This document shows, piece by piece, positions 62 to 5,486 of a stretch of DNA of 5,486 nt. The stretch lies in sequence record KF044309.1. One strand, written 5' to 3'. The notes below the pieces were generated by a model that searched no databases, was not told the DNA's origin, and saw only the letters and a program-made list of their open reading frames with translations. The translations under genes were made by a program, and so were the position numbers. The stretch comes from Enterobacteria phage FL68 Tallahassee/FL/2012. How positions within the stretch are numbered: the stretch's first letter is position 1; each line of letters starts with the position of its first letter.

Positions 62-1723
62 ATGCAACAAGCTAGTGACTTCTACAACAAACCACATATC
101 GACGCTATCAAACCACTCGTTGAAACCGCTGGTATGTCTGTGCTTTCTCAATCTCCAAACCTCCGTATCTGGAAACAGGTAAATTCTCGTATCAAACTAT
201 TGGAAGAAATCCTTGCTCATTACACCAATGGCATCCGCCGTGACGACAACGGCGACTTCTGGATGAATCCCAATTCTCAACTCGCAACCACAATTGCCTA
301 TCGTGCCCATCAAAAAGGACACAACCCAAAACTTATTCAATACCCTGATACATTCACTCTGGATGACATCATCCGTAAAAAGCCATTACCACAAAACGCT
401 CCTGACGAATTAAAACTCTCCGATGAAATCGGGGAAGACTATCGCCTTACAATCATCTCTCTAATCGAAGAAATGCAAGAAATCTACGACGTGCTCGGAC
501 AACTTGATATTAATAACACTATAGACCACAAACCTATCGGTAACGCCCACTGGAATCTACTCTATGAAAAACCTGTATATAAACACTGGTATGAACTGGT
601 ATCAAAACGACCCCTTAAATCAATCAGAGACGACTACAACTATGCAAAGGCTAAGGGTATTAAGGATGAATGCTCGAAAATCCTTGAGGAATCCACCATG
701 AAATCACGTAGAGGCTTTACCGTACAAAGACTAATGAATGCTATGCGCACTGCCCACACTGAGGGCTGGTACGTTGTATTCGATACTCTTACTCTTGCCG
801 ATGACCGCCTTAAGGATTTCTATGATAATCCCAATGCTCTTCGTGACTATTTCCGTGATATTGGTCGTATGGTTCTCACTGCCGAGGGTCGTTCTGTCCA
901 TGATTCATCTTCGGACTGCTATCAGTACTTTTGTGTGCCTGAGTATGGCACCCAGCACGGCCGTTTACATTTTCACGCAGTGCACCTTATGCGCACACTT
1001 CCTTTGGGTTCTATCGACCCTAACTTTGGCAAGCTGGTGCGTACTAATCGGCAAATAAATAGCTTGCAAAATACATGGCCCTATGGTTACTCTATGCCCA
1101 TCGCGGTCCGGTACTCCCAAGACGCATTCTCGCGCGCTGGCTGGCTCTGGCCCGTTGATACAAAGGGCGAACCTCTTAAAGCTACCTCGTATATGGCTGT
1201 CGGCTTCTACGTCGCTAAATACGTTAACAAAAAATCAGATATTGACATGGCCTCTAAAGGTCTAGGGAATAAAGAATGGAACAATTCACTCAAAACCAAA
1301 ATCAACCTGCTGCCCAAGAAAATCTTCCGCATCAGAATGTCTCGCAACTTCGGAATGAAGCTGCACACAATGAGTCACCTCTCAGCGGAAACTCTAATCC
1401 AACTGACCCAAGTGGGCTACGACGTGACCCCGTTCAACAACATCTTGAAGCAGAACGCCAAGAAAGAGCTACGATTGAGGCTGGCAAAGAAATCTGTCGC
1501 CGACGTTTTGGAGGCGCAACCTGTGACGACCAATCTGCTAAAATTCATGCGCAATTTGACCCGTCAAATCGGAGTGTCCAACCTGCAGAGTTTTATCGCT
1601 TCAATGACAACGAAATTAACAAGTATGGATATTTCTGATGAAACCAAAAACTACGTTGATACTGCAGGAATTACTGCTACTCACTTACGAATTAAATCGA
1701 AGTGGACTGCTGGTGGAAAATGA
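62..1723 (+). CDS. A: Replication initiation protein A (rolling-circle HUH endonuclease, gpA)
   Basis: Long ORF in frame 2, collinear with my recollection of phiX174/G4 protein A (e.g. [63 protein letters not shown]-terminus). HUH motif HFHAVH at 968-985; catalytic YVAKY at 1208-1222. Start is ambiguous: the ORF opens at ATG 32 (563 aa) with no Shine-Dalgarno, while in-frame ATG 62 (553 aa) has GGAGG at 48-52 with 9-nt spacing. I call 62; the alternative is 32..1723. Confidence 0.9.
500..529 (+). other. Viral (+) strand origin of rolling-circle replication, 30-nt conserved core CAACTTGATATTAATAACACTATAGACCAC; predicted gpA nick between G506 and A507
   Basis: Exact match to the 30-nt origin conserved in phiX174/G4/alpha3/St-1 as I recall it. 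Lies inside gene A at the homologous place and encodes [10 protein letters not shown]. Confidence 0.85.
698..1723 (+). CDS. A*: Protein A* (internal in-frame restart within gene A; C-terminal 341 aa of gpA)
   Basis: In-frame ATG at 698 with GAGGA Shine-Dalgarno at 686-690 (7-nt spacing). Product begins MKSRRGF as phiX174 A* does, and is 341 aa, the same length as phiX174 A*. Confidence 0.75.
1276..1638 (+). CDS. B: Internal scaffolding protein B
   Basis: 120-aa ORF in frame 1, wholly inside gene A. Collinear with phiX174 gpB as recalled (MEQ..., QLR(D/N)E(N/A)AHN, GLRRD(A/P)[17 protein letters not shown](K/Q)[11 protein letters not shown]-terminal (F/Y)GYF). GGGA Shine-Dalgarno-like stretch at 1265-1268. 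Stop TGA overlaps the K start (TGATG). Confidence 0.9.
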
Positions 1724-2545: not shown

Positions 2546-3829
2546 ATGTCTAACGTTCAAACTTCCGCTGACCGTATTCCTAACGACCTTTCTCACCTCG
2601 TCTTCGAGGCTGGCAAAATCGGTCGTTTAAAAACTATCTCTTGGACTCCAGTTGTCGCTGGCGACTCATTTGAAACTGAAATGGTAGGCGCTATTCGCCT
2701 TTCCCCACTTCGTCGTGGCCTTGCCGTCGACTCTCGCGTGGATATTTTCTCCTTCTACATCCCGCATCGTCATATCTATGGTCAACAATGGATTGACTTT
2801 ATTAAAGCTGGTGTTAATGCTACTCCGCTGGCTCCTGTTACCTGCTCCTCTGGCTGGGACTCTGCTGCCTATCTTGGCACTATTCCATCATCTACACTCA
2901 AGGTTCCTAAATTCTTACATCAAGGATACCTGAATATTTACAATAACTACTTCAAACCGCCGTGGGATACTGACCTCACTTACGCTAACCCATCTAACAT
3001 GCCTGAACAGGATTATAAATGGGGTGTTCGTGTCGCTAACTTAAAATCTATCTGGACCGCTCCTCTGCCTCCTAACTCTAAAATATCAGAGACTATGACC
3101 ACTGGCGCTACGTCTATTGATATTATGGGCCTGCAAGCTGCTTATGCTAAATTGCATACCCAACAAGAACGTGACTACTTCATGACTCGCTACCGCGATA
3201 TTATGAAAGACTTCGGCGGACACACCTCCTACGATGGTGATAACCGCCCTCTGCTGCTTATGCGCTCTGAATTCTGGGCCTCTGGCTATGACGTCGACGG
3301 TACTGACCAATCTTCATTAGGTCAGTTCTCTGGTCGCGTCCAACAGACATTCAATCACAAAGTACCTCGCTTCTATGTACCTGAACACGGCGTCATTATG
3401 ACTCTCGCTGTTACTCGCTTCCCTCCTACTCATGAAATGGAGATGCACTATCTTGTCGGCAAAGAATCTTTAACTTATACCGACATCGCTTGCGACCCTG
3501 CTCTTATGGCTAACTTGCCTCCGCGCGAAGTATCCCTTAAGGAATTCTTCCACTCTTCGCCGGACTCCGCTAAGTTCAAAATCGCCGAAGGTCAATGGTA
3601 CCGCACGCAGCCTGACCGTGTCGCATACCCTTATAACGCTCTTGATGGCTTCCCGTTCTATTCTGAACTGCCATCTACTGACTTAAAACAACGTGTCTTA
3701 GTTAATACTGATAACTACGATGAAATCTTCCAGTCTATGCAACTCGCACACTGGAATATGCAAACCAAATTTAACACTACTGTCTATAGACACATGCCTA
3801 CGACTCGTGATTCAATCATGACGTCATAA
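2546..3829 (+). CDS. F: Major capsid protein F
   Basis: 427-aa product, collinear with the phiX174 and G4 F proteins as recalled (MSN(I/V)QT, GDSFE, LRLSPLRRGLA, GYLNIYNNYFK, IDIMGLQAAYA, QERDYFM, SGYDVDGTDQ, SLGQFSGRVQQT, KFKIAEGQWYR, LPTTRDSIMTS C-terminus); same length as phiX174 F. AAGGA Shine-Dalgarno at 2535-2539. Confidence 0.97.
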   Translation: MSNVQTSADRIPNDLSHLVFEAGKIGRLKTISWTPVVAGDSFETEMVGAIRLSPLRRGLAVDSRVDIFSFYIPHRHIYGQQWIDFIKAGVNATPLAPVTCSSGWDSAAYLGTIPSSTLKVPKFLHQGYLNIYNNYFKPPWDTDLTYANPSNMPEQDYKWGVRVANLKSIWTAPLPPNSKISETMTTGATSIDIMGLQAAYAKLHTQQERDYFMTRYRDIMKDFGGHTSYDGDNRPLLLMRSEFWASGYDVDGTDQSSLGQFSGRVQQTFNHKVPRFYVPEHGVIMTLAVTRFPPTHEMEMHYLVGKESLTYTDIACDPALMANLPPREVSLKEFFHSSPDSAKFKIAEGQWYRTQPDRVAYPYNALDGFPFYSELPSTDLKQRVLVNTDNYDEIFQSMQLAHWNMQTKFNTTVYRHMPTTRDSIMTS

Positions 3830-3840
3830 AGCCTATAACG

Positions 3841-3878
3841 TGACAGGGGGAAAAATTTTAATTTTTCGCCCCCTGTCA
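3841..3878 (+). other. F-G intergenic long hairpin (10-bp GC-rich stem plus 5-bp A-T extension, with a 2-nt bulge); candidate terminator and/or complementary-strand origin element
   Basis: TGACAGGGGG (3841-3850) pairs with CCCCCTGTCA (3869-3878); AAAAA (3851-3855) pairs with TTTTT (3862-3866); CG at 3867-3868 is bulged. The F-G intergenic region is where phiX174-type phages carry a terminator (TF) and their complementary-strand initiation signals, primase-dependent in G4 and PriA-dependent in phiX174. Function is inferred from position only. Confidence 0.4.
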
Positions 3879-3928
3879 GGTTGAACAAGCGCAAGCGCGT
3901 TAGCTGCCTAACTTAAAAGGAAACTCAA

Positions 3929-4468
3929 ATGTTCCAGAAATTCGTCAAAAAACATAACGCCCCGTTAACTTCTCAAGCTGCTATCTCTAAAGCTGTTACT
4001 CCATCTATGACCGCCGCCCCTCTTGTTACTACACCTCTCGGCGTGTCTTCTACTCAATTATTCTTGGAACTTACAACCACTGCCGCCGCTGGCGGCTTCG
4101 CTTACGCTATCCGCGTAGACAATTCTAACCCTACTGATAATCAGGTCTTCTCCGTCTGTGCTCACATTACATCTGACGTGGACCCTAAATATATTGCGTG
4201 CCTCGTTCGCTTTGAGGTCACTGCTGGTACCACTCCTACCGCTATGCCTCCTGTCTATGATGCTTACCCTATCGCTGGTTACTATGGCGCTGGCTCTTAT
4301 ACTGTTGAAGACTGCGCTACTATTCCTACTCACGCTGTCTCTTCTGGCAACGATGTATATGTCGGCCTTATGCTTTTCTCTCGCATGTGGCCCGTTGCAA
4401 AACTATCCGGTATCGCTTCCCTTAATCAGGTAAACAAGGAAGTAACCGTTCTCCAACCTCTTAAATAA
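3929..4468 (+). CDS. G: Major spike protein G
   Basis: 179-aa product with the phiX174 gpG N-terminus (MFQ.F...HN), the ACLVRFE block and the SLNQV(I/N)KE...LQPLK C-terminus. AAGGA Shine-Dalgarno at 3917-3921. Confidence 0.95.
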
Positions 4469-4478
4469 GGTATTCTCT

Positions 4479-5486
4479 ATGTTTGGTGCAATCGCTGGCG
4501 GTATCGCCTCATCTCTTGCTGGCGGACTCATCAACAAAGCCTTTGGGGGCGGTCAATCCGCCTCCTCTACTGGCGTTCAAGGTGATGTCCTCGCTTCTGA
4601 CAATAACGTAATCGGTGCTAATGATGCTGGTATCAAATCCGCTATTCAAGGCTCTAATCCGCCTAATGGCCAACAAGCTGCTCCCAATGCTATTTCGGGC
4701 GTTCTCGCTGACACTGGCAAAGACGCCCTATCTTCAATCACTGGCGCTGGCGTTAATAAACTTATGGAAAAAATCGGACTATCTAAAACTGCTGCTGATA
4801 AAGGCAAGGACACAAAGGATTATCTTGCTGCTGCATTCCCCGAACTCAACGCGTGGGAACGCGCTGGCTCTGGTGCTTCGTCTGCTGGCATGGTTGACGC
4901 TGGCTTCCAAAACCAAAAAGAATTAACTCGCATGCAGCTTGACAATCAAAAAGAAATCGCTAAGATGCAAAACGACACACAAAAGGATATCGCTGGTATC
5001 CAATCTGTCACATCCCGGCAAAATACTAAGGATGCTGTCTATGCTCAAAACGAGATGCTCGAATATAACCAAAAAGAATCTATGTCACGCGTTGGCTCTA
5101 TTCTCGAAAACACAAGCCTCACCAAACAACAACAAACTTCTGAAATTATGCGGCAGATGCTTACTCAAGCTCAAACCGCAGGTCAACATTTTACAAATGA
5201 CCAAATCAAAGAACTTACACGAAAAGTTGGCGCTGATATTGATTCTGTCCGCGCTAACACTGACCGTACACATGTAGAAACTCAACGTTCAAAACAGGAA
5301 GTTCAAAACTCTCGTTATGCTTCCTCACAAGTCGGTAAAACCGCTAAAGATGTCTCTAATGCAGTTACTGATACAGCTAGTTCTATTGTTGATTATTTTC
5401 GTGGTATTGATAACAAAGTGGCAGACGCTTATAACAACTATTTCAAAGATGGTAAATCCGACGGAATCGGGTCGAACATCAAATAA
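4479..5486 (+). CDS. H: DNA pilot protein H (minor spike, DNA-translocating tube)
   Basis: 335-aa product collinear with phiX174 gpH as recalled ([56 protein letters not shown](R/K)[48 protein letters not shown]). Gly-rich N-terminus and a Gln-rich coiled-coil-like middle. Stop TAA is the last three bases of the window. Confidence 0.95.

Follow-up and report, generated by a model that had tools for sequence, protein, structure and literature searches.

A predicted phiX174-type viral-strand origin inside the initiator gene of a G4-like microvirus and its conservation at the nucleotide level

Our analysis of the DNA of Enterobacteria phage FL68 Tallahassee/FL/2012 (KF044309.1), a stretch of 5486 nucleotides hereafter called the window, assigns the 30 nucleotides at positions 500–529 as the viral-strand origin (ori+) of a G4-like Bullavirinae phage. 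We hold this assignment to be nearly certain, with the cutting mechanism attributed by homology. The same nucleotides form ten in-frame codons of gene A, which encodes the initiator that would act on them. As judged by comparison across lineages, it is the nucleotide sequence on which selection acts, the encoded peptide being carried along, nearly frozen, within the diverging N-terminal part of the initiator protein (gpA). Two features define the locus:

Positions 62–1723, + strand: gene A, the rolling-circle initiator (HUH endonuclease), annotated in KF044310.1 and matching the Pfam family Phage_GPA (PF05840).
Positions 500–529, + strand: predicted viral-strand rolling-circle origin (ori+), also codons 147–156 of gene A; exact match to CAACTTGATATTAATAACACTATAGACCAC.

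The window is a complete microvirus genome of the G4-like type. In a megablast search of GenBank phage records it proved 99.9% identical, at 100% coverage, to FL76 Tallahassee/FL/2012 (KF044310.1; Bullavirinae, Gequatrovirus talmos), with three differing positions only (1654, 2340 and an N at 3346), and 97.7% identical to phage ID2. The annotation of KF044310.1 comprises genes A, A*, B, K, C, D, E, J, F, G and H. Through it, the window displays the genome context typical of a Bullavirinae ori+, that is, a circular single-stranded DNA microvirus of about 5.4–6.1 kb with the order A-A*-B-K-C-D-E-J-F-G-H. The 30-mer lies on the + strand upstream of the A* start (698), and its first base, at position 500, opens a codon of gene A.

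The original prediction held that these 30 nucleotides are an exact copy of the phiX174 gpA recognition and nick site embedded in the coding sequence of its own initiator. Comparison with the fetched records bears this out. All 30 bases agree with nt 4299–4328 of phiX174 (J02482), which lie inside 'protein A', and all 30 agree with G4 (V00657), the type phage of the genus, where the site even has the same coordinates, 500–529, and nothing relevant to the origin differs. In total, 565 GenBank phage records contain the 30-mer at 100% identity, including phiX174 and G4-like phages that have it at 500–529. In the window CAACTTGATATTAATAACACTATAGACCAC occurs once, and 200 dinucleotide-preserving shuffles of the window gave no match even at three mismatches, with none expected by chance. 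In phiX174 the site occupies the same in-frame place in gene A (codons Q107–H116), and the origin of alpha3, St-1 and phiK (Alphatrevirus) shares both location and frame, retaining 28 of the 30 bases and differing by T11A and A14G in the AT-rich spacer. On all the sequence-level features considered, the site thus belongs fully to the phiX174-type ori+ family.

For the comparison of initiators we used gene A from 18 genomes: the window; G4, ID18, Lilledu and Lilleen; phiX174 and GR8; four IMG/VR contigs; alpha3, WA13, ID21 and a dog-faeces microvirus; Pectobacterium phage Mimer; and two Vibrio phages. A locus search for gpA relatives had given seven loci, and representatives were therefore drawn from GenBank phage records. 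The gpA proteins were aligned and the codons threaded back onto the alignment. The residues of the presumed active site are as follows:

Positions 968–976, + strand: codons of the HUH motif H303-F304-H305 (phiX174 H263-F264-H265), by alignment; both histidines are invariant in 18 of 18 sequences.
Positions 1208–1222, + strand: codons of YVAKY with the predicted catalytic tyrosines Y383 and Y387 (phiX174 Y343 and Y347), by alignment; both are invariant wherever the region is present.

The gene A product matches Phage_GPA with an E-value of 9.4e-59 and has the two tyrosines in the YxxxY spacing expected of a cognate initiator. Other phiX174 residues kept in the 18-sequence alignment are Glu254, Arg261 and Thr202/Thr204, corresponding to E294, R301 and T242/T244 of the window. 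Given the family match together with these conserved residues, the window encodes a competent-looking cognate enzyme, its cutting activity being assigned by homology. The protein as a whole has diverged from that of phiX174, as had also been predicted: identity is 63% by tblastn or 70% in the MAFFT alignment, nucleotide identity is 70%, and the N-terminus of the window's gene A is 40 residues longer. The G4 protein is closer (89–90% identity). The gene A frame is in addition open over positions 32–61, from an ATG at 32 (MPPNHRRLSY...) located ten codons 5′ of the annotated start at 62; this MPPN... extension is likewise open in phiX174, G4 and ID18.

Against this background of protein divergence, the conservation of the 30-mer stands out. 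Invariance was counted over nine non-redundant lineages whose gpA proteins are 40–89% identical to that of the window. In this set no other 30-nt stretch of gene A comes near the conservation of the 30-mer: 25 of its 30 columns are invariant, versus 16 of 30 for the next-best stretch and 25.5% of ungapped columns gene-wide. Among degenerate columns with an invariant amino acid, the codon itself is invariant in 6 of 7 cases inside the 30-mer versus 7 of 83 outside (Fisher one-sided p=1.8e-5), a test that, like the shuffling, uses no phylogeny model and spans few independent lineages (about five clades). Pairwise comparisons give the same picture. Degenerate codons for the same amino acid are identical to those of phiX174 in 10 of 10 cases inside and in 56% outside, and relative to an IMG/VR contig whose gpA is 52–55% identical to the window's, in 10 of 10 and 43%, respectively. 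The strong purifying selection that had been proposed for this cis-element is therefore visible as frozen synonymous sites.

The boundaries of the conserved block are equally informative, as conservation ends abruptly at both edges of the 30-mer. In a 60-nt alignment of nine lineages including St-1, 23 of 30 columns are invariant inside the 30-mer, compared with 0 of 15 upstream and 1 of 15 downstream. The exact match around the origin spans 500–529 between the window and phiX174, 499–529 between the window and the IMG/VR contig with 52–55% gpA identity, and 488–534 between the window and G4.

One might argue that the gpA peptide of codons 147–156 is itself functionally essential and that the identity of the DNA is a by-product of selection on the protein. 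Indeed, phiX174-like and G4-like phages show hardly any variation in this peptide. However, all ten amino acids have synonymous alternatives, and yet the codons are fixed far more often inside the 30-mer than outside. Moreover, natural variants change the peptide and still keep 27–28 of the 30 bases. Both substitutions of the alpha3/St-1-type origin, T11A and A14G, are non-synonymous (I to N and N to S). The Vibrio-type origin has A2T (Q to L) plus two synonymous changes, with T12A as its spacer change, and in Mimer CAC is replaced by AAG (H to K), so that the origin ends in ...GACAAG and not in ...GACCAC. Experimental data also speak against selection on the peptide: according to a 2026 saturation-mutagenesis preprint on phiX174, synonymous mutations are detrimental at Q107, L108, D109, I110, N111, N112, T113, I114 and D115, and these positions colocalise with ori+. 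H116 is outside the preprint's detrimental list, in agreement with the variation of Mimer at origin positions 28 and 30. We therefore consider an origin conserved merely for its peptide very improbable. Frozen synonymous sites and natural variants that are often non-synonymous argue for selection on the DNA itself. If gpA reads the site as DNA, all three codon positions would be constrained, and the ten codons would be kept as a nearly frozen peptide.

Alternatively, the identity might stem not from long-term purifying selection but from a short segment that phiX174-like and G4-like phages recently exchanged by horizontal transfer. Rokyta and colleagues are said to have described, in 2006, recombination between Bullavirinae clades. 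There is also a segment of the window, 2166–2233, that is identical to phiX174 at 68 of 68 positions though G4 differs there. However, the exact or near-exact origin block is present in every lineage examined, namely phiX174, G4, ID18, Lilledu, the IMG/VR contig with 52–55% gpA identity, alpha3, St-1 and the Vibrio and Pectobacterium phages. In every case the block has the same limits as the functional 30-mer, with flanks that diverge at once. Constraint is a far likelier cause than the repeated transfer of exactly 30 nt, and we give exchange even less credence than selection on the peptide. Long-term constraint on the DNA thus remains our reading of the origin.

The segment at 2166–2233 merits a comment of its own. 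The window's longest stretch of exact identity to phiX174 is this 68-nt block (phiX174 nt 588–655) and not the origin. It lies in the D/E overlap, with D in frame 0 and E in frame +2, and encodes the N-terminal membrane segment of lysis protein E. The alpha3-like WA13 shares all 68 positions, while there are 4 mismatches in G4, 9 in Lilledu and 15 in Vibrio PG19. The identity is likely due to dual-coding constraint, and the patchy pattern among clades could stem from inter-clade recombination.

Within the origin, the parts can be delineated by what varies and what does not:

Positions 506–507, + strand: predicted gpA nick G506|A507, with the 3′-OH on G506 and the tyrosine esterified to the 5′ phosphate of A507, by homology only.
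Positions 502–509, + strand: invariant 8-nt core ACTTGATA around the nick, unchanged in nine of nine lineages, including a Vibrio phage with 40% gpA identity.
Positions 510–513, + strand: variable part of the AT-rich spacer (origin nt 11–14), with T11A and A14G in alpha3/St-1-type and T12A in Vibrio-type phages.
Positions 521–526, + strand: invariant 3′ block ATAGAC (origin nt 22–27), inside the invariant run 521–529.

The division of the origin into recognition, spacer and binding parts follows the anatomy worked out in the 1980s by van Mansfeld, Baas, Fluit, Jansz, Brown and Hurwitz. The decamer CAACTTGATA (500–509) is what we take to be the single-strand recognition sequence of gpA, reportedly defined by van Mansfeld and colleagues in 1980. 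ATAGAC is presumably part of the gpA duplex-binding ('key') region known from the work of Baas, Fluit and Jansz. The run that contains it, ATAGACCAC (521–529), is unchanged across the nine-lineage set, and Mimer deviates from it at origin nt 28 and 30. As for the nick, J02482 annotates the 'origin of viral strand synthesis' (rep_origin) at nt 4306, which is base 8 of the 30-mer and corresponds to A507 of the window. G506|A507, the position given in the original prediction, would accordingly be the exact homologue of phiX174 G4305|A4306. The 2026 preprint places cleavage and religation in phiX174 at the same G4305/A4306 junction within the 30-nt ori+, via Tyr343/Tyr347.

The sequence of events at the origin has been established for phiX174. 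For the FL68 phage we infer these steps, including cleavage, the covalent intermediate and the exact nick, from the identity of the site and the homology of the enzyme. On supercoiled replicative-form DNA, gpA would bind the 3′ part of the origin, and the AT-rich middle would melt. One of the two tyrosines (Y383 or Y387) would then attack the + strand in the decamer between G506 and A507, leaving gpA covalently joined to the 5′ phosphate of A507 and the 3′-OH of G506 as a primer, which host Rep helicase and DNA polymerase III would extend around the circle. At the regenerated origin the second tyrosine would cut and the first phosphotyrosine bond would be resolved, releasing a circular + strand and re-arming gpA.

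Many plasmid and CRESS-DNA virus origins show the nick site in a hairpin loop located outside the rep gene. The predicted origin in the window differs from these in both respects: the site is inside the coding sequence of the initiator, and a search for a hairpin in the single-stranded fold of 470–560 revealed no significant structure (MFE −2.5 kcal/mol, z=+0.93, with 168 of 200 shuffles folding at least as well). Such a region fits a phiX174-type origin, opened on supercoiled duplex, rather than one displayed in a hairpin loop; an origin of the kind found in CRESS-DNA viruses and many rolling-circle plasmids was rejected for want of a stable stem-loop. The nicking chemistry, on the other hand, is common to phiX174-type origins and the double-strand origins of pC194/pUB110 plasmids and CRESS-DNA viruses. 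In HUH-Rep rolling-circle replication, a tyrosine endonuclease nicks a specific site, becomes linked through a 5′-phosphotyrosine and terminates by strand transfer.

The distribution of the origin in sequence collections was explored with motifs of different stringency. A stricter 20-base degenerate pattern retrieved 20 IMG/VR contigs, all of them Bullavirinae genomes of 5.2–6.3 kb, carrying just two alleles: the exact 30-mer or the alpha3-type with 28 of 30 bases. With the 14-base core ACTTGATANNNNTAACAC there were at least 120 IMG/VR matches, and those outside Bullavirinae fit the full 30-mer at chance level (15–23 of 30). Among the matches listed, none of the non-Bullavirinae contigs encoded a gpA relative. 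Three small IMG/VR contigs had a weak tblastn match beside the core; this was a single long ORF (632–811 aa) with E-values of 8–9.5 and no real similarity to gpA, and we dismissed it as a chance match. The exact 30-mer also occurs in GTDB species genomes: at least 120 contigs with a length of about 5.4 kb matched it, in unrelated bacteria and archaea (Phaeobacter, Clostridium, Helicobacter heilmannii and Methanoculleus among them). We rejected the idea that these are prophages. Since at least 95% of the 31-mers of every contig listed also occur in phiX174, they are phiX174 itself, that is, Illumina sequencing spike-in contamination in public assemblies. In the record of Mycolicibacterium phage J1 (MZ417522.1, 24,953 bp), nt 3162–4667 hold a gpA-like ORF with 64.7% identity to the window's gpA, the same as that of phiX174, suggesting that a phiX174 fragment was assembled into the record. 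A Protaetiibacter phage record was also among the matches to the window or its gpA. In Mimer (ON872163.1), gene A is annotated as two CDSs, and the ORF containing the origin stops after about 317 codons, which indicates a frameshift, a sequencing error or a real split.

Two intergenic regions of the window also drew our attention. The F–G intergenic region (3830–3928) contains a long and stable hairpin, GTGACAGGGGGAAAAATTTTAATTTTTCGCCCCCTGTCAG, at 3837–3882; its fold has an MFE of −20.7 kcal/mol (z=−4.77), and none of 200 shuffles was as stable. It is in this region that G4, so similar at the viral-strand origin, differs from the window, and it is here that G4 has its primase-dependent complementary-strand origin, annotated at G4 3970–3998. 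Because the F–G intergenic sequence of the window aligns with that of ID18 and hardly with that of G4, the complementary-strand origin and/or F terminator of the ID2/FL76 lineage may differ from those of G4. In the J–F intergenic region, a GC-rich hairpin, GGGGCTTCGGCCCC, followed by the T-rich run TCTATTT (2510–2535) resembles an intrinsic terminator placed after gene J.

Knowledge of the origin and its nick site, of its place inside gene A and of its conservation among isometric phages goes back to about 1980. The very phrase '30-nucleotide icosahedral bacteriophage origin' is title wording of Goetz et al. 1988, as cited in the 2026 preprint. The original interpretation was thus right, but its interest was overrated, as this is a classical element in a deposited G4-like genome. 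Its value is mainly that of a positive control, a classical cis-element overlapping coding sequence having been recognised from raw sequence. The dual constraint on the site is confirmed quantitatively, and biologically no new knowledge is added; the cost of synonymous changes at the origin has now been measured directly in phiX174 in the 2026 preprint. A small added value lies in the catalogue of tolerated origin positions, namely 2, 11, 12, 14, 21, 28 and 30, compiled from alpha3-like, Vibrio and Pectobacterium microviruses.

Some of these tolerated positions fall in the AT-rich spacer. Based on an AlphaFold 3 model, the 2026 preprint proposed that F455 and F471 of phiX174 gpA act as a wedge entering the spacer of ori+. 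The corresponding residues of the window are:

Positions 1544–1546 and 1592–1594, + strand: codons of gpA F495 and F511 (phiX174 F455 and F471), by alignment; these codons overlap gene B.

All phages that carry the exact 30-mer keep F455 wherever this part of gpA aligns, and they keep F471 as well, save for one poor-quality IMG/VR contig that is gapped at 471. The alpha3/St-1-type and Vibrio-type phages, whose spacers carry T11A with A14G and T12A, respectively, have T/N/Q and S at the F455 and F471 positions. Natural variants of the origin may thus be matched by changes in the initiator, as expected if spacer and wedge had co-evolved. As this co-variation comes from two clades only, it is confounded by phylogeny, and we regard co-evolution as a rather doubtful, tentative reading. 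If it were true, Bullavirinae-like phages would fall into origin specificity classes set by the spacer and the wedge.
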